In this document: piece by piece, positions 6,611 to 40,801 of the stretch
Numbering within the stretch: the first letter of the stretch is position 1
Layout: every line of letters starts with the position of its first letter
Notes under the pieces: generated by a model
Told to the model about the DNA's origin: nothing
The model's input: the letters and a program-made list of their open reading frames with translations, nothing else
Database searches by the model: none
Assembly (NCBI GenBank): GCA_001897295.1
Contig: MKSN01000001.1
Span: 672,141 to 736,140, forward strand
Source of the DNA: Candidatus Saccharibacteria bacterium 49-20
Lineage (GTDB): Bacteria; Patescibacteriota; Saccharimonadia; Saccharimonadales; Saccharimonadaceae
Direction of reading: 5' to 3'
DNA length: 64,000 bases
Made by a program: the position numbers and the translations under genes

Positions 6611-7504
6611 TTAAATACCTAGTGTTGCAAGATACCAATCAAGAATGTGCCACCCGATAAACCATGCCAAAATCGTACCCGAAATTAACATCGGTCCGAA
6701 CGGGATATGCGAAGTACGCTCCACCTTCTTCATCGCAAGCAGCGGAATCACAATAAGGCAGCCGATGAAGTTCGCAAGGAACAGCGCCACGCCCGCGAGC
6801 TGCCAGTCAACCAAGATCAGCCCCAGGCCCACGCCAAGCTTTACATCACCAAACCCAACCCAGCGGCCCTGAGAAATCGCATAGAGCACTGCATAGAGCC
6901 CCGAGAGAAGCCCTACTGCGCCAATTGCAGTCAGGATTGTACCACCAATATCCTGCGTCTCAGCCGCCGAAACACCCACAATACCAAGCCCTACTACGGC
7001 GAGCGCAATCACAAAGCTGTCAGGGAGCAAGAACCACTTCAGGTCATAGGCAAACAATACCGCCATAATGACGCCTGCGGCGAGCCACAATACGAAATGC
7101 GCAATCTCGAGGCCAGTGGTGACCCCACCTGGCCAGAACGCGTACGACAGCACGAAAAACGCAATCGTTCCGAGCTCCATAAGTAATTCAAACTTACCGA
7201 TTGGGTGTTTACACTTACGGCAACGGCCCCTAAGCGATAGCCAGCTGATGACTGGGATCAGATCATACCACTTGAGCTCGTAACCACACTCCAAGCAACG
7301 CGAGCGATCCTGCATAGTCTTTTTTCCAAGTAGCTTTTTCAGGCGCGAGTATTCCTTGTGATCATACGGCTCTTTCGCCGCCTTATCGGCCTGCAGCTGC
7401 CTTGCTCGAAGCCGCCATACCGTTGCACCCGCAAAACTACCGAAACATGCGCCAACGAGCACCAGCGCCAAGTACACAACAAATTCATTCATAAGCACCA
7501 TCAT
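6611..7504 (-). CDS. pilD: prepilin peptidase (A24 family, PilD)
   Basis: N-terminal Cys-rich segment [33 protein letters not shown], multiple TM segments, and GFGDVKL and PFGPML Asp-box regions. Confidence 0.92.
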
Positions 7505-7574: not shown

Positions 7575-8060
7575 CTAGGTGTCGAGACAGTAACCAGACT
7601 TGTTACCACCTTCAAGTTGTGTCACGGTTGCGAATTGACGAGATGTACCCGCAGTAATTGTTACAGAACCGTTCACTCCATTAGAGCCACACTTCATACC
7701 CTTGTAGACACGGATGGTGCCGTCAGGAATCGTGTAAGTACCTGCAGTTGCCGGGTTTACCACGGTCACAGTGTTGATGTTGTTTGACAGCTTAGCGAAG
7801 GTCTTATTGGTACCAGTACCAGTTGCTTCGAGTTGGTTGTCCATGTTCGCGGTAGTTGGGAACGTACCACGGTTGTTATTGGCGTATGTTGTTACTGCTG
7901 AAGCCACAGAACCTACGTCACTCTTACGAGCCGTGTCGCGTTGGCCACTCTGAAGCGCTGGGAGTGCCACGAAGACCATCAAGAAGATTAGACCCGCGAT
8001 AGCAAGCACCAAGACAACCTCGATGATTGTGAATCCTTTATTTTGTTTTACGAAGTTCAT
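7575..8060 (-). CDS. pilA: major type IV pilin
   Basis: MNFVKQNKG|FTIIEVVLVLAIAGLIFLMVFVALPALQ, 161 aa, with a C-terminal Cys pair (KCGS...GYCLDT). Start placed at ATG 8060, preceded by AAAGGTGGG. The ORF-track start at 8081 would add 7 residues. Confidence 0.85.
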   Translation of the reverse strand: MNFVKQNKGFTIIEVVLVLAIAGLIFLMVFVALPALQSGQRDTARKSDVGSVASAVTTYANNNRGTFPTTANMDNQLEATGTGTNKTFAKLSNNINTVTVVNPATAGTYTIPDGTIRVYKGMKCGSNGVNGSVTITAGTSRQFATVTQLEGGNKSGYCLDT

Positions 8061-8141
8061 TTGGGTTAGCCCACCTTTCATATGAACATTAATTCGGTTA
8101 AGCTTATACTAAACCACTTTTTTTACGTTGTCTAGCTCTTT

Positions 8142-9353
8142 TTAGACGCTAATACCGTTCACCAAGCTATAGATTGGGAATAGAATTGCGCCCACCATTC
8201 CTCCCGCGACAACCGCGAGGACAACCATGAGAATTGGCTCAATAGCCGTTGAAATGGTGCGAATTTGTTCGTCGAGCTCGTCTTCGTATACTTGGGCAAC
8301 CTTACCCATCATTTCGTCGATCTTACCCGACTGTTCACCAATACGAATCATCTGCGATACAAGTGGTTCAATAAGCTCTTCTGGTTCAAGTGCAGTCGAA
8401 AGCGCCTTACCGCCCTGCACCTTATCTGCAGCGCGTACAATCGCCGCTTCAAGCAAGGTGTTGTTAATAGCGTGGCTCGTGACCTTGAGGGTGTCGAGCA
8501 TGCTCACACCCGTACTAAGAAGGGTCTGTGCAGTACGCGCAAAGCGCGCCATGTAGAGCTTCGAGAACATCTTACCGAATAACGGCACTTTAAGCTTAAA
8601 GGTGTCCTTAAACTTAATACCATTCTCGGTCTTCATGAACTGCACGAGGAAGAAAATACCAATACCGAGGACGATTGCCACGAGCCACCAGAAGCCTGCC
8701 AAGAAGTTCGCCATCTTCACCATGATGTCAGTCAGGACTGGAAGTGGCTTTCCAAGGTCGTCATACAGCTTTTCCACCTGTGGAACAACCGTGAACAACA
8801 TGAAGGCCATCACACCACCAATCACAAAGAGGACAATCATTGGGTACATCATGGCACCACGAATACGGCCCGCAACGGCAGCGTCTTTTTCTTGCTGGTT
8901 TGCAATGCGCTGGAGCGATTCATCGAGCGTACCCGACAACTCACCTGCTGCAATAAGCGAAAGGAAGACTTCGTTAAACACCTTTGGGTGCTTTGCGAAT
9001 GAGTCAGAAAGCGAGCGACCACCCTCAACCGAGACAGAGATATCTTCGACAACCGCCTGAAGCTGCTTGTTTTGCGTTTGATCCTTCACGGTATGAAGGC
9101 TCTGGCTAAGCGGCAACCCTGCGCCAATCAAGGTTGCAAGCTGACGCGTAAAGACAACCTTATCTTTCGTACCAATACGGCCATTGATGCGGCTCATGAA
9201 GCTTCCGTCACCAATTTGCTCTTTGACGTTCAGTGGCACGAAGCCCTGCTTAATCAGCAGGCGTGCAGCAGCGGTTTCAGAGTCGGCCTGAATAGTCGAC
9301 TTTACAACCTTATTGGTCGCCTGATCCCTTGCTTCATAGGTAAATTTTTTCAC
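8142..9353 (-). CDS. pilC: type IV pilus platform protein PilC (GspF family)
   Basis: 403 aa with two GspF-type repeats and three TM segments. Lies in pilB-pilT-pilC context. Confidence 0.93.
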   Translation of the reverse strand: MKKFTYEARDQATNKVVKSTIQADSETAAARLLIKQGFVPLNVKEQIGDGSFMSRINGRIGTKDKVVFTRQLATLIGAGLPLSQSLHTVKDQTQNKQLQAVVEDISVSVEGGRSLSDSFAKHPKVFNEVFLSLIAAGELSGTLDESLQRIANQQEKDAAVAGRIRGAMMYPMIVLFVIGGVMAFMLFTVVPQVEKLYDDLGKPLPVLTDIMVKMANFLAGFWWLVAIVLGIGIFFLVQFMKTENGIKFKDTFKLKVPLFGKMFSKLYMARFARTAQTLLSTGVSMLDTLKVTSHAINNTLLEAAIVRAADKVQGGKALSTALEPEELIEPLVSQMIRIGEQSGKIDEMMGKVAQVYEDELDEQIRTISTAIEPILMVVLAVVAGGMVGAILFPIYSLVNGISV

Positions 9354-9356
9354 CTG

Positions 9357-10424
9357 TTATCCCCTCATAAGCCTTTCGAATTCAACAAGGTCAACGGCAA
9401 ACTCACGCGCATTGTCGTAGGTTACCGTACCAGCCTGCACGAGGCTTGCGAGTGTACGGTCCATGGTCTGCATCCCCTGCTCTGCCCCGGTTTGAATAAT
9501 CGCGTCGAGCTGGTGGCTCTTACCCTCACGAATAATATTGCGGACTGCTGGGTTGGCGATAAGAATTTCCGCCGCTACCACGCGACCGCCGCCAATTGCA
9601 GGGACGAGACGCTGCGAACAAATCGCCATCAAGATGTTTGAAAGCTGCGCACGAATCTGTGGCTGCTGGTGAGGAGGGAACACGTCAATCATACGGTCAA
9701 TCGACTGCGCCGCAGAGTTAGTGTGCAGTGTTGCGAACACAAGGTGTCCGGTTTCTGCAATCGTAATCGCCGCAGAGATAGTTTCGAGGTCACGCATCTC
9801 ACCAATCAACACGACGTCTGGGTCTTGGCGAAGGCTCGAACGAAGCGCCGCGCTAAATGAGTAGGTGTCGTAGTGCACTTCGCGCTGCACAATGACCGAC
9901 TTCTTTGACTTGTGGGTAAACTCAATTGGGTCTTCGATGGTAATAATGTGGGCCGACTTTTCAGTGTTGATCTTGTCGACAAGTGCCGCAAGTGTGGTCG
10001 ACTTACCTGAACCGGTTGGACCAGTCACAAGCACGAGACCGCGTGGATATTCAGCAAATCCCATTACTACAGATGGCATACCGAGCTCGGTCACCGACTT
10101 AATTTCGTTAGGAATGAGACGAAGCGCAGCCGCAAGATTACCGCGTTCGTGGAAGGCGTTTACACGGAAGCGTCCGAGTGTACCAAAGGCGAATGAAAAG
10201 TCGAATTCTTTGTCCTTTAGAAGGATCTGACGCTGGTCTTGGTCGAGAATAGCGAACACGAGTGTTTCAACACCCGCTTCATCCAAAGGGTTAAAGCCCG
10301 CAACTGGTACAAGCTGTCCGTCAATACGGAGCATTGGTGGCAAGCCCACCTGAAGGTGAAGGTCGGACGCGCGCCGCTTCACCACTTCTTCTAGCAATAC
10401 TTCGATTCGTAAGTTTTGATTCAT
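9357..10424 (-). CDS. pilT: twitching-motility retraction ATPase PilT
   Basis: 355 aa with Walker A GPTGSGKST, Walker B VVLIGEMRD and the PilT signature PAVRNIIREGKSHQL. Confidence 0.94.
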   Translation of the reverse strand: MNQNLRIEVLLEEVVKRRASDLHLQVGLPPMLRIDGQLVPVAGFNPLDEAGVETLVFAILDQDQRQILLKDKEFDFSFAFGTLGRFRVNAFHERGNLAAALRLIPNEIKSVTELGMPSVVMGFAEYPRGLVLVTGPTGSGKSTTLAALVDKINTEKSAHIITIEDPIEFTHKSKKSVIVQREVHYDTYSFSAALRSSLRQDPDVVLIGEMRDLETISAAITIAETGHLVFATLHTNSAAQSIDRMIDVFPPHQQPQIRAQLSNILMAICSQRLVPAIGGGRVVAAEILIANPAVRNIIREGKSHQLDAIIQTGAEQGMQTMDRTLASLVQAGTVTYDNAREFAVDLVEFERLMRG

Positions 10425-10437
10425 ATTGTGCCCACTC

Positions 10438-12201
10438 CTATGCTGTATCTGATGTAACGCGGTTAACCTCTTCTATTGTAGTGAGACCCGTTAACGCCTT
10501 TAGGTATCCGTCCTGTCGCATGGTAATCATCCCCTGCGATACGGCAAGTCGCTGAATTTCAGCACTCGTTGCCCGTTCGACGATAAGCTTTTGGATGTCC
10601 GTGTTCACATCCATCACTTCGTAAAGACCTGCACGACCAGTGTAGCCGTGTGGCGTTTGAGGGGTATCAATTCCTCTGACTAAAGTATAAGCGCTTTGGC
10701 CTGCTAATGGTAGGTCTTTATATCCCAAATCGGCAGAAACCTTTGCAACCTCTTCTTTTGTCTTTGGCAGAAGGTGCCCAACTGTGGCAAGAATGTTTTG
10801 CGTCTCGATTGGTGACGATTGGTACGTTTCGCGCTTATTCGCCACGCGACGCACAAGGCGCTGACCAATAATAGTATTCACCGTACTGGCAATAAGGAAC
10901 GGCTCGATATTCATATCAAGAAGACGCGGAAGCACACCTGCAGCCGAGTTGGTGTGCAGCGTACTAAACACAAGGTGTCCCGTAAGCGCCGCCTGGACAG
11001 CGAGTCCCGCGGTTTCGGCGTCACGGATCTCACCTACCATCACGACGTCCGGGTCCTGACGCAGAATTGAACGAAGGCCATTGGCAAACGTAAGTCCCAC
11101 TTCGGCATTTACCTGAATCTGGTTTACCCCTGCCATCTTATACTCAACCGGGTCTTCGAGGGTCACGATATTCACCGTATCGTCTTTAATTTCTTTAATG
11201 AGTGCATACAGACTGGTCGACTTACCTGAACCGGTAGGCCCAGAGGTCAGCACCATGCCGTTTGGACGCTTGACGCCGCGACGAATCACGCGCAGTGCAC
11301 GGCCCGCATATCCCATTTCCTCGAGGTCAAAGCTATTGCCTGACTTATCAAGAAGACGGATCACAATTTGCTCGCCCCATACCACTGGGCTAATGGCGAT
11401 ACGAAGGTCGACCTCTTTGTTCGCGACCTTGACGGCGAACTGACCGTCCTGCGGGATACGGTGTTCGTCAATTTTGAGGTTTGAAAGAATCTTCACACGA
11501 CTCACCAGCGCTGGCTCAATACTTTTTGGCAGCTGCATCACTTCACGAAGCACGCCGTCGACACGACAGCGAATCTTGAGCGCCGTCTCAAGAGGTTCGA
11601 CGTGGATGTCACTGGCACGAGACTTCACCGCGTACTCGAGAATCTTACTAAGGGCTTGGCTAATTGGTGAGTCTTGGACAATCGTCTTTACATCACTCGC
11701 CTCTTCCGCCTTCAGTTCATCCTGAGACGCCTTGGCGGCTTGGTCGACGCTCGAAAGGTCGGTTTTGTACTGGTCGAGTACGTGACGCACGCCTGCTTCC
11801 GAGGCCATGAAGACCTTCAGTGGACGCTGAATACGGTTTGCGAGGTAGTCAACCGCCTGGACGTTGTTTCCGTCAAGCATGGCAACCGCAAGACGGTTTT
11901 GCACTTCAGCCAAGGGCACGGCCATAAAGCGCTCCGCGATGTCCTCTGGAAGCAGCGCAAGGATATTCTGGTCAATGAGTGTGCTCGCGAGGTTTACATA
12001 CGGCACACCTGAAACCTGCGCAATGGCGTGCGTCAAAAGCTCATCATCAATAATGTCCTGATCGGTAAGTAAGCTAAAGAGCGGCTTACTCTCTTTTGCA
12101 GCCTGCTCTTTTGTCGCGGTAATCACGTCAGCAGCAACAAGCCCTTCATCAATCAGCAGGGCTATGAGCTTTTCTTGGATGTCGTCAGTGAGGAGTGCCA
12201 T
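10438..12201 (-). CDS. pilB: type IV pilus extension ATPase PilB (GspE family)
   Basis: 587 aa with an N-terminal GSPII/MshEN-like domain, Walker A SGPTGSGKSTSL, Walker B VVMVGEIRD and a His box (LVFSTLHTNSA). Confidence 0.94.
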   Translation of the reverse strand: MALLTDDIQEKLIALLIDEGLVAADVITATKEQAAKESKPLFSLLTDQDIIDDELLTHAIAQVSGVPYVNLASTLIDQNILALLPEDIAERFMAVPLAEVQNRLAVAMLDGNNVQAVDYLANRIQRPLKVFMASEAGVRHVLDQYKTDLSSVDQAAKASQDELKAEEASDVKTIVQDSPISQALSKILEYAVKSRASDIHVEPLETALKIRCRVDGVLREVMQLPKSIEPALVSRVKILSNLKIDEHRIPQDGQFAVKVANKEVDLRIAISPVVWGEQIVIRLLDKSGNSFDLEEMGYAGRALRVIRRGVKRPNGMVLTSGPTGSGKSTSLYALIKEIKDDTVNIVTLEDPVEYKMAGVNQIQVNAEVGLTFANGLRSILRQDPDVVMVGEIRDAETAGLAVQAALTGHLVFSTLHTNSAAGVLPRLLDMNIEPFLIASTVNTIIGQRLVRRVANKRETYQSSPIETQNILATVGHLLPKTKEEVAKVSADLGYKDLPLAGQSAYTLVRGIDTPQTPHGYTGRAGLYEVMDVNTDIQKLIVERATSAEIQRLAVSQGMITMRQDGYLKALTGLTTIEEVNRVTSDTA

Positions 12202-12219
12202 ATAAGCTAAGTGTCCTCC

Positions 12220-12444
12220 CTACTCGTTCGTGGGTGTAATCTGCACCTCTATGGCAGGGTTAATTGCATTTTGGTTGAAGATGTTTTGATCTGGAGGGGT
12301 TACCTCACTCTCGATGCGCTCAATTGACTTCACAGTCACCTCTTCGCTCTCAGAGCCATTGAAGATTCCGCGCGTTACAAAGAACGCGACCATCACACTC
12401 ACGACGGCAATAAGGATAATCATTGCTATATCGGTTTTTTTCAT
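12220..12444 (-). CDS. small single-pass membrane protein in the pilMNO-pilB interval
   Basis: 74 aa with one N-terminal TM (IAMIILIAVVSVMVAFFV). Its start overlaps the pilO stop by 4 nt, in the position PilP occupies in diderm clusters. No motif recognised. Confidence 0.5.
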   Translation of the reverse strand: MKKTDIAMIILIAVVSVMVAFFVTRGIFNGSESEEVTVKSIERIESEVTPPDQNIFNQNAINPAIEVQITPTNE

Positions 12445-13130
12445 CGAGGCACCTTCTTATCTTGGAGTTCAATTGTCTTTGCTGGTTCGTAGAATACTTT
12501 TCCGCGCACTGTCATTTGTGGCGTTCCCTGAATTTCAATACGAACTGAAGTTACCTGCACGGTACGGATTGAACGTTCGAGGTTCACGAGTACTTGCTTA
12601 AAGGCATCGAGTGAACCCTTTACTTGGAACTGGAATGTAATCTCGTTACCGGCTGCGTCGCCTTCTGCTGGCGCCGCTGCGTCGTCAGATGCCAGTGTTT
12701 CAACACCCACAATTGGGTCAACCTGTAGTGATTCAATCGAAAGCCCATCAATACCTACAAGCAGCTTGTTTTGCAGTGACGAACCAAATGCGAATGAGTT
12801 TGGCTCAGATGGGAGTGCGTCAAGAATTACCTGGAGCGCTTGGTCTTGCTCGTTTGCTTTTACGCTTGAGAGTGCCACATTCGTATCGAGTACACGGACT
12901 TGATCTTCAAGTTCTTTCACAACAGAGTTATTGTGTTCGAGCGTCGAGACAGTGTTTTGCTTTTCTGCGAGGACTTTCTCGTTGTAGATAAGCTTCTGTG
13001 CCATGAAGATACTTACCACCAGTGCTGAACCAACCAGCGCAGACGCAATCGCGATCCAAATGAACATCGTCTTGTTGGCGTTGGCGATTTGGGTTCGCTT
13101 ACGAATTGCTACATCATTACCTTGTTTCAT
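12441..13130 (-). CDS. pilO: PilO-like pilus alignment protein
   Basis: One TM followed by a coiled-coil segment (LIYNEKVLAEKQNTVSTLEHNNSVVKELEDQVRVLD), located directly after pilN. Start placed at ATG 13130 (TAG-t-ATG junction with pilN) rather than 13157. Confidence 0.6.
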   Translation of the reverse strand: MKQGNDVAIRKRTQIANANKTMFIWIAIASALVGSALVVSIFMAQKLIYNEKVLAEKQNTVSTLEHNNSVVKELEDQVRVLDTNVALSSVKANEQDQALQVILDALPSEPNSFAFGSSLQNKLLVGIDGLSIESLQVDPIVGVETLASDDAAAPAEGDAAGNEITFQFQVKGSLDAFKQVLVNLERSIRTVQVTSVRIEIQGTPQMTVRGKVFYEPAKTIELQDKKVPR

Positions 13131-13131
13131 A

Positions 13132-13848
13132 CTACAAATCCGTCGCCCTTTCCTCAAAGATCTTCCTTGGAATACCTAGGTAAGAGTCGGTGACGTTACC
13201 GTCAACACTGAGCTTAATTGCGATACCGCTAATATTTGGCGAGAAGGCTTTCTCTGCATAGGTAAATGTCAGCACAAAACGCAGGACCAAGTTGTTGTCG
13301 GCGTCCCTTCCGTAGCTCGTGTCGGTCACACTAATGTCGCTCGCGAGGTCGACGGTGGTTTGCTCTTCTGTTTCAGGTTCGGTGTAGGTCAGTGTTGCGC
13401 TATCAAGGGTCTTCTTAAAGAGCTCCATGCTGTCGTAGCCGCGAGTCTGGCCTTCAAGGCGAACGGTTTTCTCTTCTGCGTCGATAGTGATTTGTGACAT
13501 GCGTGCATCGTTTGGTGCCGGTGGCACAACTGCCGAAAGGATATCGAATACGCGTGAATCAACGTTCTTTGCGCTATTGAGCTCACTTACCTTGTTGAGT
13601 TGGTTCTGAATGGTCAAAATCTTCGAAAGGTCCTCTACCTTTGCAAGCTTTTCAGAACCTTCTTTGATTTGGCCGTCCAAAATTGCGCTGCGTACGTTTT
13701 GGGCACCAAAGACATAGGCCACCAATGCGACCACAAGACCCGCCGCGATAATACTCACAAGGATTGAGCTTGAAATAACGGTCGCGCGCATACGCTGCGC
13801 ACGGAGAAGCTCCTGCTTTACATCGGGGATGAGGTTAATTTCAATCAT
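13132..13848 (-). CDS. pilN: PilN-like pilus alignment protein
   Basis: MIEINLIPDVKQELLRAQR N-terminus (the INLLP-type PilM-binding motif), then one TM. Overlaps the pilM stop by 4 nt. Confidence 0.68.
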   Translation of the reverse strand: MIEINLIPDVKQELLRAQRMRATVISSSILVSIIAAGLVVALVAYVFGAQNVRSAILDGQIKEGSEKLAKVEDLSKILTIQNQLNKVSELNSAKNVDSRVFDILSAVVPPAPNDARMSQITIDAEEKTVRLEGQTRGYDSMELFKKTLDSATLTYTEPETEEQTTVDLASDISVTDTSYGRDADNNLVLRFVLTFTYAEKAFSPNISGIAIKLSVDGNVTDSYLGIPRKIFEERATDL

Positions 13849-14891
13849 ATACGCGTCTTCCTTTGCGCGAGGCCAATTGCCGCAGCATATTCTGTCGCAA
13901 CGGTCATAAGCTGCTGCTGGTCACCCTGTGACACGCGGACGCGCTGCCATGGGTTTGCAAGGCTCGACTGAATCCCAGTCTTACCGCTGACATATTCACC
14001 AAAACCAGGCACCACTGAACCGAAGCCGGAAAGCATAATGCCGCCTACTGGAGTGTTAGGGTAGCGAGTTTGGAAGAACTTGATTGACTTGATAAGTTCG
14101 ACTGCGAAGTTGTCGAGTGTACCTTCAATCGCGCGGTAGACCTGACCTTCAAGGCGGTCTGGCGCAAGACCAAACTTCAAAATGAACTGGCGCGCTTGGT
14201 CTTCTTGAACGTTAAGGTTTTGGACCGCAGCCTTAATAAGCGACTTAAGTCCCGTAGGAATCGTACGGACGAGTCGCGGTGCATCACCAAAGGTAATCGC
14301 AAGGTCGGTTGACTGCTCGCCCACATCGATAATAAGACGAGCATCCGCAACACCAGAAGGCAACAGTGAGCGGATCATCGCGAGTGGATCTGGTTCAGCA
14401 GCAATCACGTTAAGGCCGAGGCTCTCGACAAATTCGAGGCGCTCTTCAGCGTAGGTGTTTGAAGTACTTGCAATAAGGACTTCTTGCATCTTAGGGTCGT
14501 GCAGTGACGTACCGAGCAGCGCCCAGTCTACCTTCGCCTCGTTAACCGCCATAGGAATGTACTGATCAACTTGGTATTTGATGGTGTTTCGAAGTTCGTT
14601 TTCGGGCATGACAGGAACTTCAATCACAGTAGTGAAGGTCTTGCTTGAAGGGAGGCCGATCACCACGTTCTTCGTCTTAATACCGCTCTGCCCTACCGCG
14701 GTCATAATCACTTCGCCGAGTTTACGCATCGCTTCAGGTGAAGATGCGGCGGCAATTTTTTCATCGAGAGGCGCGTACCCAAAGTGAACGAGGTTCCATC
14801 CGTCAGACCCCGCAGGAGCTAGCTGAACAACACGAACAGCGTTCGTTCCTATGTCTAGTGCAAAAAAGTCGCCCACGCCATGTACTGCCAT
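13845..14891 (-). CDS. pilM: type IV pilus assembly ATPase-fold protein PilM
   Basis: Actin/HSP70-like fold motifs (FALDIGTNAVRVVQL, IIDVGEQSTDL, GIMLSGFGS). Start moved to ATG 14891 because the ORF-track ATG at 14903 lies inside the predicted -10 hexamer. Confidence 0.85.
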   Translation of the reverse strand: MAVHGVGDFFALDIGTNAVRVVQLAPAGSDGWNLVHFGYAPLDEKIAAASSPEAMRKLGEVIMTAVGQSGIKTKNVVIGLPSSKTFTTVIEVPVMPENELRNTIKYQVDQYIPMAVNEAKVDWALLGTSLHDPKMQEVLIASTSNTYAEERLEFVESLGLNVIAAEPDPLAMIRSLLPSGVADARLIIDVGEQSTDLAITFGDAPRLVRTIPTGLKSLIKAAVQNLNVQEDQARQFILKFGLAPDRLEGQVYRAIEGTLDNFAVELIKSIKFFQTRYPNTPVGGIMLSGFGSVVPGFGEYVSGKTGIQSSLANPWQRVRVSQGDQQQLMTVATEYAAAIGLAQRKTRI

Positions 14892-14901
14892 ATTGTCCCT
14901 C

Positions 14902-14930
14902 ATTATAGGAAAGCGTTAGCGGAATAGCAA
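14902..14930 (-). promoter_or_regulatory. sigma-70 type promoter for pilM operon (TTGCTA-17-TATAAT)
   Basis: The minus strand reads TTGCTAttccgctaacgctttccTATAATgagggacaatATG, with an exact 17-nt spacer. The -10 ends 10 nt before the ATG at 14891. Confidence 0.6.
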
Positions 14931-19970: not shown

Positions 19971-20011
19971 GCGGACCGCCTCACCCCGAAGGGCTAATTG
20001 AGGCGGTCCGC
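19971..20011 (-). terminator. 13-bp perfect GC-rich hairpin spanning the stop codon of the sortase-like gene (no U-tract)
   Basis: gcggaccgcctca (19971-19983) pairs with tgaggcggtccgc (19999-20011). No U-run follows on the minus strand. Terminator function is inferred. Confidence 0.5.
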
Positions 20012-21717: not shown

Positions 21718-21822
21718 GTTGTCTCCAAATGGTGATGTGGCACACCGGAGTATCCGGTGGGCTATGTGATGGCACCCTCCCTATTCTGTAAGGGGTGGTG
21801 TGTTTCCATGACACTAGTGGGG

Positions 21823-21831
21823 ATTATACCA
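21823..21831 (-). promoter_or_regulatory. extended -10 (TGGTATAAT) upstream of the high-GC island
   Basis: The minus strand reads tttttaTGGTATAATcccc in AT-rich sequence about 100 nt upstream of ATG 21717. The leader contains a caccgga-tac-tccggtg hairpin (about 21748-21764). Confidence 0.45.
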
Positions 21832-21878
21832 TAAAAAGCTAAAAAAGTAAATACTCTCGGCTTTTCATACCGCTTCGC

Positions 21879-24948: not shown

Positions 24949-25515
24949 TTAGTATGGCAGACGATCCTGAGATTGTTTTAAAATCCCTACGACAGTTTTG
25001 TAAAGCAACTCCAGTTCTTCTTTTGTAATCTTCGATTCGCTCGCCAATTCCTCAATCAATGCGGAGCCGTCAATGATATTCTCGCCGATACTGTCGTACT
25101 CTCGCACCCCATATACCCTTCGTACATCCTTCTGCACCAGAATACCCCGCTGCTCATCAGTCCTAAACTGGAAAAGGTATTCCCGCTCGAGTTCACCAGA
25201 CTTCATATATAATGCGGTCGTCAAATTTTGGTTTGGGCTACTCTGGTCATTTCCATCAAGAGAATATGGGCCCCAGGCGCTAATAGTAACGCTCTCTGGC
25301 GGATCGAGTGCACGTGCAATATATTCGTTAACAATGGGGTCATCAGGTGCTACATCAAAAGTAACACCCAGCCCACAATACTCGTCGTTTACATTATTTT
25401 CGCGATACGTCCTTCGCACTCCGCTGAGCAAAAGCTTGTCGACTTCTTGCATAAATAGGTACATCTGCACGTCGAGCTCAGGAAACTGTTCTTGGTTATT
25501 TTCTTTTTCGTTCAT
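24949..25515 (-). CDS. hypothetical protein (AT-richer orphan)
   Basis: Start placed at ATG 25515 (MNEKENNQEQ...), preceded by GGAGA. The ORF-track N-terminal extension to 25578 would read through an intrinsic terminator. No motif recognised. Confidence 0.55.
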   Translation of the reverse strand: MNEKENNQEQFPELDVQMYLFMQEVDKLLLSGVRRTYRENNVNDEYCGLGVTFDVAPDDPIVNEYIARALDPPESVTISAWGPYSLDGNDQSSPNQNLTTALYMKSGELEREYLFQFRTDEQRGILVQKDVRRVYGVREYDSIGENIIDGSALIEELASESKITKEELELLYKTVVGILKQSQDRLPY

Positions 25516-25526
25516 TTCTTTTCTCC

Positions 25527-25552
25527 AAAAAAAACGACCTCTTTCGAGGCCG
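25527..25552 (-). terminator. intrinsic terminator (7-bp stem plus U8) 12 nt upstream of the ATG of the 24949-25515 gene
   Basis: The minus-strand RNA reads cggccuc-gaaa-gaggucg-uuuuuuuu. The stem is complete only on the minus strand (A-C on the plus strand becomes U.G). Confidence 0.65.
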
Positions 25553-25689
25553 ATATAAAGTAATATATTTATGCACAATAGCTACACAGGCCTCACATGT
25601 GATGCACAAACGTGATGTAGTGTGTTGTTGATAAATATCATCGTATTTATAGTATAAAAGAATTTAGTCTAAGCGTCAACTAGGAATGC

Positions 25690-27957
25690 TTACCCCAGCT
25701 CTTCGTCATCAGCGTTTCCGCCACCCGTACCAAACACCTCATCAAGGCTCGATACAAGCACGTCACGAGGCCGTGCGCCATCCGCAGGGCCGATAATCCC
25801 CTGCTCTTCCATCTCTTCAATAAGGCGCGCTGCGCGGGCGTAGCCAACACGGAGGCGACGCTGCAGCAGGCTTGCAGATGCCTTGCCGCTATCAACTACT
25901 ACGCGAACCGCGTCCATAAACATATCGTCGTGGCCATCACTGTTAGAATCAAAGTCCATCACTACACCACCCTTGCCATTAAGCTGGACTGGCTGGCTGA
26001 CAACTTCGTCGTTGTACTGTGGAGGTGATTGCAAGCGAAGGTGGTCGGTAATCTTCATAACTTCTTCGTCGGTTACCCAGGCACCCTGAATACGCTTCGG
26101 CTTTGGCATTGCAGCCGTAAGCATCAGCATGTCACCCTGGCCAAGGAGCTTCTCGGCACCAATTTGGTCAAGAATAGTTCGTGAGTCAACCTGCGAAGCC
26201 ACAGTAAAGGCAATACGGGCTGGGACGTTGGCCTTAATAAGACCAGTAATAACGTCGACAGATGGGCGTTGGGTCGCAAGTACCAAGTGAATACCGACAG
26301 CACGAGCCTTCTGCGCAAGGCGCACAATCAGCGCTTCTACGTCGCGGGCTGCAACCATCATCAGGTCGGCGAGCTCGTCGATCACAATCACAATGTACGG
26401 CATCGAACCGTCTTCATGCTGTTGCTCGTGGCCCTCTTCATCTTGAACAACAATTTTGGTCTTTCCGCTTTGGACCATACCGTTATACGTTTTAATGTCG
26501 CGCACCTTGTGTTCAGCCAAAAGCTTGTAACGGCGCTCCATCTCGTTTACCGCCCACTTCAGCGCGCTAATCGTCTTTTCAGGTTCGTTAATTACAGGCG
26601 TAATAAGGTGCGGAATATCCTCGTAAGGCGCCATTTCCACCTGCTTAGGGTCAACCAGAATCAGTTTCATTTCTGAAGGGCTGTTGCGGTATAGAAGGCT
26701 TGAGAGCAGCGTGTTAATCATGACCGACTTACCAGAGCCAGTCTGACCGGCGATAAGAAGGTGTGGCATCTTGTTGAGTTCACCCACTACGGCGTCACCA
26801 GCAATGTCTTTACCAATCGCAAAGCCAAGTGGCTCACCACTACCATTCCACTGCTTGCTCGTAAGAATCGAGTGAATACGTACATCGGCAGCTTTACGGT
26901 TCGGCACTTCAATACCAACCGCCTTTTGGCCAGGAATTGGCGCTTCCATGCGAAGGCTTTGCGCCGCGAGGTTAAGGGCGATGTTGGTTTCAAGCGCGGT
27001 AATTTTAGTCAGCTTTACGCCGCTTGGTGGACGAAGGGTGTACTGAGTCACCTTAGGGCCAATGTTGGCGCCTTCCATTTCAACCGAAATATTAAATTCA
27101 GCCAAAGTATCCTTAATCGTTTGTGCATTTGCCTGTACGTCACCGGCGTCAGCTGGAGACTGCTTCTTTTCAAGCAAATCGAGGCCTGGCGCTTTCCAGT
27201 TAGGGTCGCTGACGGCAACAAGTGCAGCTTGGTCTTCGGCGGCCTTATCTTTTTGAACACTATTCTTCAGTGAGCCGAGGTGTGGGCTCTTTTTCTTATC
27301 TTCCGCTGGGTCGAGGGTTGAGACACCCGCGTTCACTGTAAAGTCAGCCATTGCACCCTTCTTTGCAGGCGCATCAAGCGCTGCAGCATTACGCATCACC
27401 CTCACGTTCTCTTCTTGCTCGCTATTGTCGCGGCGCGAAAGACCCCAGAGCTTCTTAATGACCGTAATTGGTGAGGTGCGCGTAATAAAGAGTGCGGTCA
27501 AAAGAATCAGTACGATATAAATAAATACTGCCACACCCGCGTCAACAAGTTGGAGCATACCGCTGTTTACGGTGTCACCAATGAAGCCGCCGGTGGTTTT
27601 GCCTTCAGCTTTCAAAAGGCCGAACAGACCCGCCACCCATACAAGTTCGATAGCGGTTGCGAATTTCATAATGAACGGAATGCGGTTGTCTTCGGCGCGG
27701 AAGATTTCTACAGCAACGTAAATGAACACCACAGGCACGACGTACACGCCGTACCCAATTGTCGCCATAGTAGCCATATTGAGCCAATCAAGGACATCCC
27801 CACCGAGGCCAAACCAACCCAAAATAATAAGCAGCGAGAAGACAACAAGAAGGACAGCCCCTACCTGAGCCCAGAACCCATCCGGCAACACATGTTGCGG
27901 TGCGCTGCTTACCGGTGCTTTTTTGCGACTTGCGCTCTTTCGCTTCTTCTTTGCCAT
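25690..27957 (-). CDS. ftsK: DNA translocase FtsK/SpoIIIE
   Basis: 755 aa with N-terminal TM helices, a linker, motor domain with Walker A GQTGSGKSV and Walker B IVIDELADL, and a C-terminal gamma winged helix (SLLQRRLRVGYARAARLIEEME). Confidence 0.94.
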   Translation of the reverse strand: MAKKKRKSASRKKAPVSSAPQHVLPDGFWAQVGAVLLVVFSLLIILGWFGLGGDVLDWLNMATMATIGYGVYVVPVVFIYVAVEIFRAEDNRIPFIMKFATAIELVWVAGLFGLLKAEGKTTGGFIGDTVNSGMLQLVDAGVAVFIYIVLILLTALFITRTSPITVIKKLWGLSRRDNSEQEENVRVMRNAAALDAPAKKGAMADFTVNAGVSTLDPAEDKKKSPHLGSLKNSVQKDKAAEDQAALVAVSDPNWKAPGLDLLEKKQSPADAGDVQANAQTIKDTLAEFNISVEMEGANIGPKVTQYTLRPPSGVKLTKITALETNIALNLAAQSLRMEAPIPGQKAVGIEVPNRKAADVRIHSILTSKQWNGSGEPLGFAIGKDIAGDAVVGELNKMPHLLIAGQTGSGKSVMINTLLSSLLYRNSPSEMKLILVDPKQVEMAPYEDIPHLITPVINEPEKTISALKWAVNEMERRYKLLAEHKVRDIKTYNGMVQSGKTKIVVQDEEGHEQQHEDGSMPYIVIVIDELADLMMVAARDVEALIVRLAQKARAVGIHLVLATQRPSVDVITGLIKANVPARIAFTVASQVDSRTILDQIGAEKLLGQGDMLMLTAAMPKPKRIQGAWVTDEEVMKITDHLRLQSPPQYNDEVVSQPVQLNGKGGVVMDFDSNSDGHDDMFMDAVRVVVDSGKASASLLQRRLRVGYARAARLIEEMEEQGIIGPADGARPRDVLVSSLDEVFGTGGGNADDEELG

Positions 27958-28128
27958 AATCTTTTTATATTATACGGGGTGAACCGCTTTTGGTAATAGA
28001 TATATTATAGCAAAATTTACCACATTTTGCAAGAGGCTTATGGTTTGGCATGAAGGGTTGGCTTTGCCCACGAGAAATGGTTTACTGGAAAAGGACAATC
28101 CGTCCGGAAACGAAAGAAAGGAAGTGCC

Positions 28129-28599
28129 ATGCGCACTACCCCGCATACGATCCCGGACTGTGACGTTCAGTTCGTGATAGGGCCTCGTGTCAATATCCTA
28201 CGTATGAACAACAACGTGCTTCGCACCGTCTGTGACGGCGAGTACGAGGGCTGGTCTCCCCGACTGGTCCGACTGGCGTTCAAGCGTGAGATCTTCGACG
28301 CAAGAGGTATCGGGCTATGGAGCAAGATCTTCGAAGGTATCGAAGGAATTCCCATTCGCCTGAGCGACGAACTGCAGGCATCGTACAATGCCCTGCTGGA
28401 TTCACATGCGCGCGTCACACTGACGCGGGTCAACTTCGATCGGAGAAATCTGTTCAAGCGCCCGCCCCTCTGGTCACGCATCAAGCTCACGCTCGTCCAG
28501 CCCACTACTCGTCGCCTCCGCTTCGAGCAGCCGGCTGCGACTGGACCTATCTCCATCTACAACGCGTCCATCGGTCGAATCGACCCGATTGCCGCCTGA
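28129..28599 (+). CDS. hypothetical protein, elevated-GC single-gene cassette A
   Basis: 156-aa ORF with GAAAGGAAG SD 5 nt upstream of the ATG, third positions enriched in G/C, and a long GC hairpin after the stop. No motif recognised. Confidence 0.55.
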   Translation: MRTTPHTIPDCDVQFVIGPRVNILRMNNNVLRTVCDGEYEGWSPRLVRLAFKREIFDARGIGLWSKIFEGIEGIPIRLSDELQASYNALLDSHARVTLTRVNFDRRNLFKRPPLWSRIKLTLVQPTTRRLRFEQPAATGPISIYNASIGRIDPIAA

Positions 28600-28631
28600 G
28601 CCCCGCCTGTACATGCGTCGCAGCCCCCCCC

Positions 28632-28674
28632 AAACGAATAGGGACTCCGCATGTCGCGGGGCCCCTATTCGTTT
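28632..28674. terminator. long hairpin (12-bp outer stem aaacgaataggg/ccctattcgttt with inner ccgc/gcgg) between convergent cassette A and the RCC1-pilin gene
   Basis: Read directly from the sequence. It lies between stops at 28599 (+) and 28689 (-). Confidence 0.6.
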
Positions 28675-28688
28675 TAAGCCAAAGTAAT

Positions 28689-30260
28689 TTATGGATTGAG
28701 TACTTTTACAGGTACGAGCGAGTTTGTCATCGCACCGTTACCAAGTTGTCCGTAGACATTGCGGCCCCAACAGTAGGCGTTACCGTCAGTCGCCTGCGCA
28801 CAGTAGAAGTCCGCACCGGCGGTAATGCTCCAAAGGTACTTACCTGCAAGTACACCCGTATCAACAACCGCTACTGGCGAGCTTGAGTTAGTTGTTGAGT
28901 TATTACCAAGCTGTCCATTTGAGTTATACCCCCAACAGTAAGCCTTACCTTCATCAGATAGTGCACAGGTTGAGTAAAGACCAGCTGCGATTGAAGTCAT
29001 CTTCTTGCCGCCCAGCACACCTGTCGTACTGACTGCAACTGGACTCAGCGCGTTGGTAGTGGTGCCGTTCCCTACCGCACCATAAGGATTGCGACCCCAA
29101 CAGTAGGCTTTCGCATCAGAGGCAATCGCACACGTTTGGTCGTAAAGCGAGACCTTGCGAATCGTCTTACCTGAAAGCGCGCCACTTGTTGAAACTGGTG
29201 TTGCAGAATTAGTTGAAGTGGTCGAGCCATTTCCAAGCTGACCATACGCATTGTTTCCCCAACAATACAGTTGGTTACTCGTATCGATAGCACAGCCGTT
29301 ATAAGGCCCACCTACAATATCACGAAGACTCAAGCCAGAAAGTGAGCCGGCATTAACCGCAACGGGTGTTGAGCGGTTTGCAGTAGTGCCGTCACCAATA
29401 TTGCCACTTGAGTTAATACCCCAGCAGGACGCCGAGTAGTCTAAGGTAACCGTACAGCTATGCCAGGTTCCCGATGAAACAATAATATTCTTTTTGTTCA
29501 GTAGTACACCCGCGTCATTCACGCGCACTGGTACATTCGAATCAGCGAGTGTTGCGTCATTACCTAGTTGCCCATAGGTGTCTTGGCCCCAACAATACAC
29601 CTGATAGCTCGTATCAGTCGCACACGACCCATATCCTGCTCCCGAAAGGCGATAAATCGGACGGTTGCCGATCGCACCATTCGCAGTAATTGGCAGTGGC
29701 GTACCACTATTTGTTGCGCTCCCATTACCACCCTGCGAGTTGTCGCGTGCACCCCAACAGTACGCCTTGTTGTCGTACGAGACACCACAGGTGTGGTATG
29801 AACCAGCCACGACGCGCTTCCAGCCACTTGTAATAGCAGCCGCATAGGCATCATCTGATGGCACGGTGTTTGTACACACGCCTGCCTTCGACTCGACCGT
29901 ATAGGCGCTGTCGGCGTTATTAAGGTTGCCTTGCGTATTGAAGACGCGGACACACCAATCCTTACCGTCGTCCGACACAGACACATCGGCCTGATTGCCT
30001 TCACTTACTTTAATATCGAGTCCGTCTGGAGCTGGATTGCTCGAAGACCATGCGGTGTACGTTGAGCCGTGCTTTGTGCCGTACAACCCCAGTGCGTCGC
30101 GAATCGCGCTTCCGTCACTTTTCACTGATGTGTCATGCGCATTCTTCGTGACAAGCCCATAGGCCACTAATACTACTGCGGCCAAAATCGCAATCACCAC
30201 CACAACGATGATGAGCTCAACGACCGTAAACCCTTTTCGTGAACTCCCTACCCTCTTCAT
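28689..30260 (-). CDS. modular type IV pilin fused to a seven-bladed RCC1/BLIP-II-like beta-propeller
   Basis: RKG|FTVVELIIVVVVIAILAAVVLVAYG class III signal, then a pilin head of about 130 aa with a Cys pair. Seven repeats follow, each carrying (Y/S)CWG and most also YGQLGNG-type motifs (AYCWGARD, VYCWGQD, ASCWGINS, LYCWGNN, AYCWGRNP, AYCWGYNS, AYCWGRNV). Confidence 0.85.
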   Translation of the reverse strand: MKRVGSSRKGFTVVELIIVVVVIAILAAVVLVAYGLVTKNAHDTSVKSDGSAIRDALGLYGTKHGSTYTAWSSSNPAPDGLDIKVSEGNQADVSVSDDGKDWCVRVFNTQGNLNNADSAYTVESKAGVCTNTVPSDDAYAAAITSGWKRVVAGSYHTCGVSYDNKAYCWGARDNSQGGNGSATNSGTPLPITANGAIGNRPIYRLSGAGYGSCATDTSYQVYCWGQDTYGQLGNDATLADSNVPVRVNDAGVLLNKKNIIVSSGTWHSCTVTLDYSASCWGINSSGNIGDGTTANRSTPVAVNAGSLSGLSLRDIVGGPYNGCAIDTSNQLYCWGNNAYGQLGNGSTTSTNSATPVSTSGALSGKTIRKVSLYDQTCAIASDAKAYCWGRNPYGAVGNGTTTNALSPVAVSTTGVLGGKKMTSIAAGLYSTCALSDEGKAYCWGYNSNGQLGNNSTTNSSSPVAVVDTGVLAGKYLWSITAGADFYCAQATDGNAYCWGRNVYGQLGNGAMTNSLVPVKVLNP

Positions 30261-30323
30261 ATACCCCTAGTATACGAAAACACCAGGTCTTTTCCAACCT
30301 GGTGCATATTCGTGTATTAAAAA

Positions 30324-32507
30324 CTAGTAGCCGCGTGCGTCGGTGCGCTGCTTTGGCTCGGTTGCTTCGCTGTCTGGGACAACTGGCGCCGGGAAATTCT
30401 TGGGCGCCGGGCGCTTGAATTGGCGGTTTCCACCTTGGCCACGGTTCTGGCCTTTCGGCTGGCCTTCGCCGTTTTGACCACGGTTATCGCCACGACCTTC
30501 ACGGTTTTGGTCACTATTTTGTGGCTTTCCACCACCACCAATTTCGTTGATCACAGGGATCACGATTGGGGTGCGGCGCGTTTGGTCGTAGAGCACGTGC
30601 GTCAGTTCGTCCTTAATTTCCTTCTTCACAACGTCCAGATCAACCTTGCGACCATTAAAGGTGCGGGCAACTTTTTGCTTCAAGTACTGGCGAATGATAC
30701 CCATGAGCTCTTCACTGTCGCGCAGGTAAATAAATCCGCGACTAATGATATCAGGGCTGGTCATAAGGCGACCACTTCCCTTTTGTACGGTAAGTACAAC
30801 CACGAAGATGCCTTCGTTGCTCATGTGAATACGGTCTTTAAGGACCACTTCTGAAACGATCTCACCAGAGTCGTCGTACATGATACCGCCCACTGGTACG
30901 CGACCGGCTTTCTTGGCGAGACCTTGGCTAATTTCGATTACGTCACCAGAGTCACATACGAAAATGTTTTCGCGTGGAATCGCGGCTTCTTTCTGTGCAA
31001 GTTCAGCATTGTGGACAAGCATGTGGAATTCACCGTGGATTGGCATGTAGAACTTAGGGTTCAGTGCGTTAATAAGCTTCACGTGGTCGTCGTAGTAGCC
31101 GTGACCTGAAAGGTGAAGTGGACCAATACCGGTAAGGTGTGTCTTACCGTTTTGAATCACACCACTGCCTTCGCGCATGAGGCCATCAACAGTACGAGTC
31201 ACGTACTTTTCATTACCAGGAATTGGGTTTGAGCTAAAGACGATTTGGTCTGAGTTCTTAATCTTAATGAACTTGTGTGAACCATTCGCCATACGGTTAA
31301 GCACGGCGCTAAATTCACCCTGTGAACCAGTACAAATGATGGTCACCTTACTGTCTGGAAGCTTTACGATATCTTCCATCTTCACGATCACGTCCTTAGG
31401 AACGGTAATTGTACCAGTGCGAAGGGCAACTTCAACGTTTTGGATCATACTGTACCCCGCAAAGGCAACCTTACGGCCGTGCGCCTTCGCTTCGTTCAGA
31501 ATGATTTGCATACGGTGAATCTGGCTACTGAAGGCACTAATAATCAGACGACTATTAGGATACTTCTCCATTACCTGACCCATACTGGCTTGAATTTCAA
31601 ACTCACCGTGGGTGTGGGTACCATCTGATTCACAGTTGGTAGATTCGTTCATAAGAAGGGTAATACCCTCTTTGGTTGCGATTTCAGTCAGGCGTTCAAG
31701 GTCGAACTTTACACCGTCAACTGGGTTTTCTTCGAAGCGCCAGTCACCAGTGTCAACCAAGACACCTTCTGGTGTGCGCACAACGACTGCCGTTGCGTCT
31801 GGAATTGAGTGGTTCACGCGTACGAGTTCGATGCTGAAGTTATCACCAAGGAATACTTGTTCGTGCGCTTCTGGGTCCATGACATGGTAGTCAGGTGCGT
31901 ACTCAGTGGTCGCCTCTTCCATGTTCTTTTGAACCATGGCGAGGGTAAACTTCGAACCGTAGACCGGTGCAGGAAGTTGGTGAAGCAAGTGACGAACCGC
32001 ACCGATGTGGTCAAGGTGTCCGTGCGTAAACACGATACCGCGGATCTTGTGCTTGTTTTCAAGCAAGTAGCTGATGTCCGGCACGATGTAGTTAATACCC
32101 GGGTAGTCTGAGCCTGGGAAAAGAAATCCCATGTCGATCACAATGATGTCGTTATCGTATTCGATCGCCATCATGTTCTTACCAATACCCATTTCACCAA
32201 GACCACCGATTGGAATCACGCGAAGGCGTGGACCAGGGGTACGTGGCTGCTTCTTTTGGTCGGCAATGCTAAATTGACGTCCGTTGTAGCCGTTAAACAT
32301 CGACTTGTTTACAGGTACGTTAATGAGGTGCTGTGAGGCACGCGCATTGACGTCGTCGCTGGTGCGACGTTGTGCGCGAAACACTTCTCCCCTACGGGTC
32401 TGAGTGTTTGCGAGCACGGTGTTATTTTGTTTAGGTCGCTGATTGTTACCGCGCGGCTGTTTTGCCGCGTCGTCAGCTTGTGGGGTTGCGAGTCTTCGTC
32501 CTCCCAT
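30324..32507 (-). CDS. rnj: ribonuclease J with N- and C-terminal low-complexity extensions
   Basis: Metallo-beta-lactamase/beta-CASP core (FTHGHLDHIGA, DTGDWRF, HLSGHG). Basic N-terminal extension of about 95 aa and an RGG/Q/N-rich C-terminal tail of about 70 aa. Confidence 0.92.
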   Translation of the reverse strand: MGGRRLATPQADDAAKQPRGNNQRPKQNNTVLANTQTRRGEVFRAQRRTSDDVNARASQHLINVPVNKSMFNGYNGRQFSIADQKKQPRTPGPRLRVIPIGGLGEMGIGKNMMAIEYDNDIIVIDMGFLFPGSDYPGINYIVPDISYLLENKHKIRGIVFTHGHLDHIGAVRHLLHQLPAPVYGSKFTLAMVQKNMEEATTEYAPDYHVMDPEAHEQVFLGDNFSIELVRVNHSIPDATAVVVRTPEGVLVDTGDWRFEENPVDGVKFDLERLTEIATKEGITLLMNESTNCESDGTHTHGEFEIQASMGQVMEKYPNSRLIISAFSSQIHRMQIILNEAKAHGRKVAFAGYSMIQNVEVALRTGTITVPKDVIVKMEDIVKLPDSKVTIICTGSQGEFSAVLNRMANGSHKFIKIKNSDQIVFSSNPIPGNEKYVTRTVDGLMREGSGVIQNGKTHLTGIGPLHLSGHGYYDDHVKLINALNPKFYMPIHGEFHMLVHNAELAQKEAAIPRENIFVCDSGDVIEISQGLAKKAGRVPVGGIMYDDSGEIVSEVVLKDRIHMSNEGIFVVVLTVQKGSGRLMTSPDIISRGFIYLRDSEELMGIIRQYLKQKVARTFNGRKVDLDVVKKEIKDELTHVLYDQTRRTPIVIPVINEIGGGGKPQNSDQNREGRGDNRGQNGEGQPKGQNRGQGGNRQFKRPAPKNFPAPVVPDSEATEPKQRTDARGY

Positions 32508-40637: not shown

Positions 40638-40801
40638 AGTTTCTCCTTGGTTCTTTATTCTATTTTACCAAAGTATTCCCTAGGGCACCCTCCCCTGCTA
40701 TACTTTCCCTACTATGACCTGCGGGTCCTCTACGCGTCGACGTTCGGACGAGCCGAACCACTAACGCTCACCTACATAACAATTACAAGGAGAGCAACAA
40801 C

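Follow-up and report, generated by a model that had tools for sequence, protein, structure and literature searches.

The 64,000-nucleotide stretch analysed here (the window; Candidatus Saccharibacteria bacterium 49-20, contig MKSN01000001.1, positions 672,141 to 736,140, with coordinates below counted from its first nucleotide) carries a complete gene at 28689-30260 whose product we read, from its sequence and a structure model, as a two-module type IV pilin made by a Saccharibacteria (TM7) epibiont. An N-terminal pilin module is predicted to carry a C-terminal propeller of the RCC1 type. The gene is located between those for RNase J (rnj, 30324-32507) and FtsK (ftsK, 25690-27957), and all three lie on the minus strand. 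Its predicted parts and flanking signals are as follows.

28689..30260, minus strand: complete modular prepilin gene, 523 amino acids (aa) with an ATG start and its stop codon at 28689-28691 (open reading frame [ORF] list, Pfam)
30231..30260, minus strand: leader peptide MKRVGSSRKG, residues 1-10, in which Gly10 precedes the predicted PilD cleavage site (sequence)
29823..30230, minus strand: pilin (carrier) module, residues 11-146 (AlphaFold2 models, head profile, invariant Cys pair)
28692..29822, minus strand: effector module, an RCC1-like propeller, residues 147-523 (Pfam, PDB sequence matches, Foldseek, DSSP of the model)
30269..30297, minus strand: putative promoter-like site, TTGGAA-17 nt-TATACT (consensus scan)
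30280..30305, minus strand: terminator-like hairpin and T-run closing the upstream RNase J gene (10-bp stem with 5 GC pairs, TTTCG tail)
28632..28674, no strand assigned: 19-nt inverted repeat, 14 nt past the pilin stop (arms 89% complementary; -33.6 kcal/mol, z = -2.5)

An in-frame stop two codons before the ATG makes a longer form of the 523-aa ORF impossible, and the protein is identical to a 523-aa pilin called on two metagenome contigs. The separate TATACT box that an earlier, sequence-only reading of this DNA had placed 8 nt from the ATG is present at 30269-30274 on the minus strand, with an AGGGG Shine-Dalgarno-like motif between the box and the start codon. The promoter-like site to which it belongs agrees with the consensus at 9 of 12 positions, in a region where the scan returned three sites against 1.5 expected. 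Because TATACT overlaps the tail of the rnj terminator and AGGGG intervenes before the ATG, we treat the promoter call as a consensus match only. The hairpin that closes rnj argues for separate transcription of the pilin gene, and the inverted repeat beyond the pilin stop is likely a two-way terminator shared with a convergent ORF, orf156. With terminator-like signals on both sides and orf156 converging from downstream, the pilin gene looks monocistronic.

The convergent orf156 (28129-28599, plus strand, 156 aa) lies between the pilin gene and ftsK and has 57-61% GC. It matches no Pfam or PHROG family; gene calls include it on two metagenome contigs. The matching gap in the related contigs L083 and L094 is about 100 nt long and lacks it, and comparison of these sequences identifies orf156 as a lineage-specific insertion. 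The sequence-only reading had also set the pilin gene beside an elevated-GC cassette. The segment at 28100-28700 does adjoin it, but its GC content reaches no more than 57-61%, compared with about 50% in the background; the strong island is 7 kb away.

The N-terminus carries a class III signal, MKRVGSSRKG/FTVVELIIVVVVIAILAAV (the slash marks the predicted cleavage site), in which a short basic leader ending in Gly is followed by Phe1, a hydrophobic segment, and Glu at +5. This signal had been recognised from the letters alone, and both family models now find it above their cut-offs: Pfam N_methyl at 24.0 bits (cut-off 21.2, residues 7-31) and NCBIfam TIGR02532 at 23.7 bits (cut-off 16.3, residues 8-31). 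The head that follows comprises about 136 mature residues, in good agreement with the roughly 130 aa and the Cys pair proposed earlier. An alignment of 20 full-length homologues (37-73% identity), which also served as input for an AlphaFold2 model of the whole protein, shows no variation at either Cys of this pair, Cys103 or Cys129.

The full-length model is confident (mean predicted local distance difference test [pLDDT] 90, predicted template modelling score 0.87). It places helix alpha-1 at residues 13-63 (51 residues), followed by a loop and by strands at 89-95, 102-108, and 120-123, after which two short helices join the head to the propeller. Confidence in the linker region equals that in the domains, with blocks 121-150 at pLDDT 93-94, so the propeller is predicted to hold a fixed position on the head. 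When modelled alone, the head reaches a pLDDT of 87.7. A profile built from the head only matches solved type IV pilins at E values from 1e-15 to 1e-9, including Geopilin at 1.3e-15, Thermus PilA at 1e-12 (residues 11-103), and S. sanguinis PilE1 at 1.8e-10. Its match to PilA 9laa, over residues 4-128, spans the whole pilin. Foldseek with the isolated head model returned no significant match, the best pilins being Thermus TTHA1221 (4bhr; E 0.12-0.18, probability 0.69-0.89) and a Shewanella pilin. The claim of a pilin fold therefore rests on the secondary structure of the model and on the profile-sequence matches to solved pilins. Noting the weak Foldseek result, we take residues 11-146 to form a predicted pilin domain: a helix and a three-strand sheet follow the signal, where the sequence-only reading required a pilin fold.

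The remainder of the protein consists of seven repeat units of 48-56 aa (residues 147-201, 202-257, 258-311, 312-366, 367-420, 421-475, and 476-523), much as the seven repeats of about 52 aa with (Y/S)CWG had been read before. YCWG is found in six of the seven and SCWG in one. GQLGN-type motifs occur in four repeats, and the remaining three have SQGGNG, SGNIGDG, and YGAVGNG in their place. The Pfam check that had been suggested was affirmative for every family: RCC1 (PF00415; 155 bits, E 7e-46, cut-off 21.7, six stretches), RCC1_2 (PF13540; 143.8 bits, cut-off 22), and WD40_RLD (PF25390; 210.4 bits, cut-off 150) all exceed their curated cut-offs, as does N_methyl. Structure prediction likewise returned a seven-bladed propeller on a pilin module, in the model with a mean pLDDT of 90, and its DSSP assignment counts 28 strands between residues 147 and 519, corresponding to seven four-stranded blades.

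Each blade contains one Cx9C pair (158/168, 213/223, 269/279, 323/333, 377/387, 432/442, and 487/497). Together with the head pair these make up all 16 Cys of the protein, every one of which is invariant across the 20 full-length homologues. Outside the cell, these blade pairs would lend the propeller stability. An aromatic residue also precedes the first Cys in all seven blades (Y155, Y210, W266, Y320, Y373, Y429, and F485/Y486). These aromatics stand 2-4 positions ahead of the Cys, in the loop that matches the GWRHT loop of UVR8, and they vary among homologues. It is a speculation from the sequence that the aromatic loops fit a specificity-determining, possibly glycan-stacking face.

Comparison with solved structures points to the RCC1 fold. 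UVR8 is matched at 1e-40 in a PDB sequence search and is also the best Foldseek match in the PDB (E 6.5e-39, template modelling score 0.90-0.94 on the target, root mean square deviation 1.7 A), superposing over about 378 columns at 24% identity. The RCC1-like domains (RLDs) of HERC2, RCC1, RPGR, and HERC1 come next, and further down the list is the ectodomain of the receptor kinase CR4. ACR4/CR4, a plant receptor kinase whose extracellular propeller bears disulfides, is found in the sequence matches as well as in the Foldseek matches. The window propeller has the same fold and repeat family as UVR8, the HERC2 RLD, and RCC1, and like that of ACR4/CR4 it would be an extracellular propeller of the RCC1-like type. 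All of these proteins differ in lacking a pilin module and in their biology (guanine nucleotide exchange factor, photoreceptor, ubiquitin ligase), and UVR8 and RCC1 are without the Cys pair present in every window blade. The propeller also has matches in two families of phage proteins, one annotated as 'regulator of chromosome condensation' (phrog_4219, E 5.6e-55) and the other as tail protein (phrog_20500, E 6.2e-07), indicating that RCC1-type propellers also occur in phage proteins, one of which is annotated as a tail protein.

The sequence-only reading had labelled the propeller as BLIP-II-type. BLIP-II of Streptomyces exfoliatus is a seven-bladed propeller that is grouped with RCC1 at the superfamily level, and its blades are short (about 40 aa) and three-stranded. 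The label did not survive comparison. No BLIP-II chain is found among PDB sequence matches up to E=10 or among the 50 best Foldseek matches, and the window blades, unlike those of BLIP-II, are 48-56 aa long (about 54), four-stranded, and of the RCC1 type. The same results bear on the possibility that the protein displays a BLIP-II-like inhibitor, or an enzyme such as a glycoside hydrolase or lectin-enzyme, against envelope enzymes of the host. What speaks for such a function is the SCOP-level grouping of RCC1 with BLIP-II. Given the missing sequence and structural matches, the blade architecture, and the lack of any catalytic family among the Pfam and NCBIfam matches of the protein, we regard it as highly improbable.

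Modular pilins combine a pilin carrier with a generic effector domain and are predicted to be located at the pilus tip, as exemplified by S. sanguinis PilB, with a von Willebrand factor A (vWA) domain, and PilC, with a lectin domain; Dataset S1 of Raynaud et al. 2021 lists architectures that join IPR012902 to RCC1 (IPR000408/PF13540) (PMC8179133). By its Pfam domains and AlphaFold2 model, the window protein falls within the definition of a modular pilin given there. It has the same order of an IPR012902/N_methyl module, a short linker, and a bulky generic functional domain, and it shares with these pilins the prediction of a place at the tip and of adhesin function. It differs from S. sanguinis PilB and PilC in that its effector is an RCC1 propeller, not a vWA domain or a concanavalin-type lectin, and in that its organism is an epibiont of the candidate phyla radiation (CPR) whose 'host' is another bacterium. 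To our knowledge, there is no experimental characterisation of any protein that joins an RCC1 module to a canonical prepilin signal.

The nearest analogue is PilX2 (TM7x_02980) of Nanosynbacter lyticus TM7x, a minor pilin that bears a heptabladed RCC1 propeller and belongs to the thin T4P-2 pilus. Deletion of pilX2 lowered host binding from 10.6% to 4.6% and abolished a competitive advantage, and PilX2 was proposed to be a pilus-tip adhesin that binds glycans; SignalP called no PilD signal for it (ISME J 2025, PMC12206443; preprint PMC11623550). Using a primer sequence in the supplement of that paper, we retrieved TM7x-type contigs from metagenomes and read the operon pilZ2-pilV2-pilW2-pilX2-pilA2 in one of them, L088. 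There, PilX2 (L088:2917-4647) has 576 aa, starts with MMRKKDG/YSLVL without Glu5, and gives no N_methyl match.

The two proteins come from the same phylum and both place a C-terminal seven-bladed RCC1 propeller with Cx9CWG blades on a pilin-like N-terminus. By BLASTP, the propellers are 34% identical over 373 residues (149-521 of the window protein, 166-565 of PilX2; E 3e-45), whereas the PilX2 head of about 165 aa does not align with the window pilin head. The genetic settings differ as well, PilX2 being encoded in a five-pilin operon adjoining pilA2 and the window pilin by a lone gene between rnj and ftsK. We considered orthology of the window protein with PilX2 and rejected it, as only the propellers align and both signal and gene context differ. 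Many RCC1 proteins that are not pilins are closer to the window propeller (40-47% identity) than PilX2 is (34%), which suggests independent fusions rather than orthologues. The window protein is thus probably a parallel fusion of a PilX2-type propeller to a canonical pilin module.

A beta-propeller used for adhesion is also found in PilY1/PilC of diderm type IVa pili (Pseudomonas, Neisseria, and Kingella), where it is displayed at the tip, as is proposed here. PilY1 differs in that it is not a pilin, is held by a minor-pilin complex, and has a propeller of another family (IPR008707); no PilY1 family is among the Pfam matches of the window pilin at E<=1. Neither the Southlakia Tn-seq (transposon sequencing) paper nor the Mycosynbacter Pam-pilus preprint mentions the window pilin.

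A protein search revealed thousands of RCC1-type relatives. Among the best 120, a prepilin N-terminus is present in 37 and a degenerate or truncated one in two further sequences, and the rest bear Sec or lipoprotein signals ahead of the same Cx9CWG blades. Prepilin-bearing relatives exist in 7-blade (500-530 aa), 8-blade (570-598 aa), and 13-14-blade (880-916 aa) forms, and in metagenome-assembled genomes of Saccharibacteria, Microsaccharimonas, and Actinomycetota several go by the name 'prepilin-type N-terminal cleavage/methylation domain-containing protein'. With about a third of these closest homologues carrying a prepilin N-terminus, the architecture is, as judged from their sequences, less unusual than the earlier reading had assumed. 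A scan of contigs with the family alignment keyed on the generic pilin helix and returned mostly unrelated pilins, the only full-length relatives being on L001 and L002. P0002 (73% identity), the closest homologue, seems to be without the signal because an internal start was used in calling it; the ORF at L093:191-1762 reads MKRVGNSQKG/FTIVE and thus bears a canonical prepilin signal too.

The order rnj-pilin-ftsK is kept in three related metagenome contigs (L083, L094, and L093). The proteins encoded around the pilin are well conserved there, with 89-91% identity for FtsK, 84-86% for RNase J, 93% for EF-P, and 88% for SSB, and the pilin itself is only 54-55% identical (73% in L093), its head and propeller having both diverged. 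Blades 2-4 have diverged most among these syntenic orthologues, at 42-54% identity compared with 66-73% for the other blades. Nonsynonymous change (dN) is 3-5.6 times as high in the pilin as in the flanking genes, a relative measure, since synonymous change (dS) is saturated (1.5-5.4) and positive selection cannot be claimed. Such divergence against conserved flanks fits a host-interaction surface, or the way in which surface proteins generally evolve.

Further prepilin genes follow ftsK in relatives, two or three at a time (L083:6915-9302, L094:4767-6222, and L008:2393-3139). One of these ftsK-adjacent pilins combines N_methyl (24.8 bits) with the carbohydrate-binding module (CBM) family CBM_4_9 (31.9 bits, cut-off 25.9), and its head aligns with the window pilin head at 34% identity over residues 10-128. 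Pilins of this CBM type were not found in the window, which has an unrelated 209-aa ORF (24949-25578) where the relatives carry the extra prepilins; this ORF matches no Pfam or PHROG family. Distant relatives of the propeller pilin are likewise orphans amid housekeeping genes, sometimes as tandem pairs. For example, the 14-blade P0009 is encoded between uvrB and a DEAD helicase gene, and P0115 between ksgA and a tRNA synthetase gene. What is new here, by sequence comparison, is the conserved rnj-pilin-ftsK slot, the fast divergence of the pilin in it, and the fusion of a related head to a CBM module in the neighbouring pilins of relatives.

Genes for a type IV pilus are located toward the start of the window, as listed below.

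3173-6579, minus strand: minor-pilin-like set of four ORFs downstream of pilD (N-terminal sequences)
6611..7504, minus strand: PilD, prepilin peptidase (Pfam A24_N_bact 80.5 bits, Peptidase_A24 30 bits)
7575..14903, minus strand: pilus machinery block (Pfam N_methyl, T2SSF, T2SSE, MshEN, PilM_2)
7575-8081, minus strand: candidate major pilin, a 168-aa prepilin (Pfam N_methyl)
8142-9353, minus strand: PilC (Pfam)
9357-10424, minus strand: PilT (Pfam)
10438-12201, minus strand: PilB (Pfam)
13845-14903, minus strand: PilM (Pfam PilM_2), listed after two PilN/O-sized ORFs (called by size)

The block at 7575-14903 is the only pilus machinery within the window, and we infer that PilD together with PilB, PilC, PilM, and PilT would handle the propeller pilin. 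Measured to 18734, at the last ORF of the whole pil cluster, the distance to the propeller-pilin gene is 9.95 kb, matching the gap of about 10 kb noted earlier; from pilM it is 13.8 kb. Beside pilM, two paralogous secreted proteins are encoded on the minus strand at 14953-16782 (609 aa) and 16851-18734 (627 aa). The two have long conserved blocks and a C-terminal E(L/V)PPRF in common. No Pfam family matches either of them significantly, and they may belong to the pilus or to another surface structure.

The four ORFs downstream of pilD include two canonical G/FTIIE prepilins, at 4429-5163 (244 aa) and 5773-6579 (268 aa), and two proteins with non-canonical hydrophobic N-termini, of 210 aa (RGD/TIIE) and 418 aa (without Glu5). 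Judged by their sequences, the four probably serve the window's own pilus as its minor-pilin set, in which the 418-aa protein would take the place of a large, PilX1-like tip pilin; the 418-aa protein shows no similarity to the PilX2 head. The presence of this set bears on whether the propeller pilin could itself be a core minor pilin that primes or regulates assembly, its propeller serving as a plug or length regulator and any host binding being secondary. Priming minor pilins normally form a conserved operon set, whereas the propeller-pilin gene is alone and evolves fast, and the window has its own minor-pilin-like genes. A primary function in assembly therefore seems quite unlikely to us.

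The reading that we favour, and hold to be somewhat probable, is that the protein is a PilD-processed pilin of low abundance at the pilus tip whose propeller binds a component of the host-cell surface. PilD, which would also be expected to methylate the prepilin, would cut after Gly10, and the hydrophobic alpha-1 helix would allow the machinery to incorporate the protein, at low abundance, in a type IV filament. The propeller is far bulkier than the pilin head and could not pack in the filament body, which would leave it at the tip; in placing bulky modular pilins there we follow Raynaud et al. 2021 (PMC8179133). The propeller face that points away from the pilin head would then bind a cell-wall glycan or a protein on the surface of the host bacterium, and so contribute to host recognition and attachment. 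This reading gains weight because deletion of pilX2 lowers host binding (PMC11623550 / PMC12206443). The fast divergence of the pilin relative to its flanks and the ftsK-adjacent pilin that couples a similar head to CBM_4_9 also speak for it. The sequence-only reading had offered a partner- or host-recognition adhesin or a displayed inhibitor. The modular pilin and its candidacy for adhesion are upheld, the latter by analogy with PilX2, and the inhibitor is not, with BLIP-II missing from the matches. The earlier notion of a protein-binding propeller is unsupported, as the only experimental hints for PilX2 point to cell-wall glycans.

Several observations weigh against the favoured reading. The propeller-pilin gene lies outside any pilin operon, and the functional precedent, PilX2, has a different N-terminal module. 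As described above, Foldseek of the isolated head gave no significant match. We also attempted to assign the protein to a filament by its alpha-1 helix, which is 28% identical to that of the window major-pilin candidate and 44% identical to that of TM7x-type PilA2, but both matches are weak and do not discriminate between the two. Finally, the pilin shows no sign of omega > 1, its apparent dN/dS being far below 1 with dS saturated.

The isolated position of the gene, 10-14 kb from the pilus genes, is also what would be expected of a membrane-anchored surface receptor, for which the class III signal would serve export and anchoring only and the propeller would stay at the cell surface and bind a substrate or partner from that position, not from an extended filament. 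Archaeal 'bindosome' sugar-binding proteins and short pseudopili are precedents for a class III signal used in this manner. Family members such as P0009 and P0115 are similarly scattered among housekeeping genes, and a bulky propeller, above all in the 14-blade forms, is hard to picture inside a filament. Against an anchored receptor, the head is a full pilin module with helix, sheet, and Cys pair, conserved across 20 homologues; the TM7x analogue PilX2 affects pilus-dependent host binding; and a position at the tip solves the packing problem. We therefore consider anchoring at the cell surface unlikely, and prefer a low-abundance pilin with the propeller at the pilus tip.

A bolder proposal extends the tip-adhesin reading to the locus. 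The rnj-ftsK-rpsF region could be a hot spot of interchangeable, fast-diverging tip adhesins that set host range, with the seven aromatics forming a multivalent glycan-binding face; we offer this as a long shot. One pilin carrier may have been fused there to different effectors, an RCC1 propeller in this strain and CBM_4_9-type modules in relatives, and the genes would come and go between lineages.

Two features elsewhere in the window are recorded here in their own right. A GC island at 20000-22000 reaches 62-66% GC in a genome of about 50% and includes, at 19994-21717 on the minus strand, genes for a sortase and a 316-aa secreted protein. The C-terminus of the latter (PPAAHTGD, a hydrophobic stretch, and RRSKLSAIRR) resembles a cell-wall sorting signal of the LAxTG type (class E sortase). 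Judged by composition and content, the two genes appear to have been acquired as a pair from a high-GC actinobacterium; actinobacteria usually serve Saccharibacteria as hosts. An MDR-NUDIX RNA motif (Rfam RF02918) is present at 40711-40767 on the plus strand (69.9 bits, gathering score 54.9), directly upstream of a 148-aa ORF at 40802-41248.

How ultrasmall CPR/Saccharibacteria epibionts recognise and hold their hosts is largely unexplained, and pilus-tip adhesins are leading candidates. Modular pilins and an RCC1-propeller pilin have already been described, so the window protein introduces no new principle. It does offer a clean adhesin candidate, with a canonical prepilin signal, what looks like a single transcription unit, a confident model, and divergence that fits a host-interaction surface. 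The comparison with PilX2 suggests that the same kind of extracellular Cys-pair RCC1 propeller has been fused to two pilin carriers. If the region between rnj and rpsF is indeed a hot spot of tip adhesins, a single monocistronic gene would be a main determinant of the host bacterium that the epibiont recognises, and host range would shift on exchange of the propeller or of the entire gene. The locus provides testable material for host-range determinants in cultivable Saccharibacteria.

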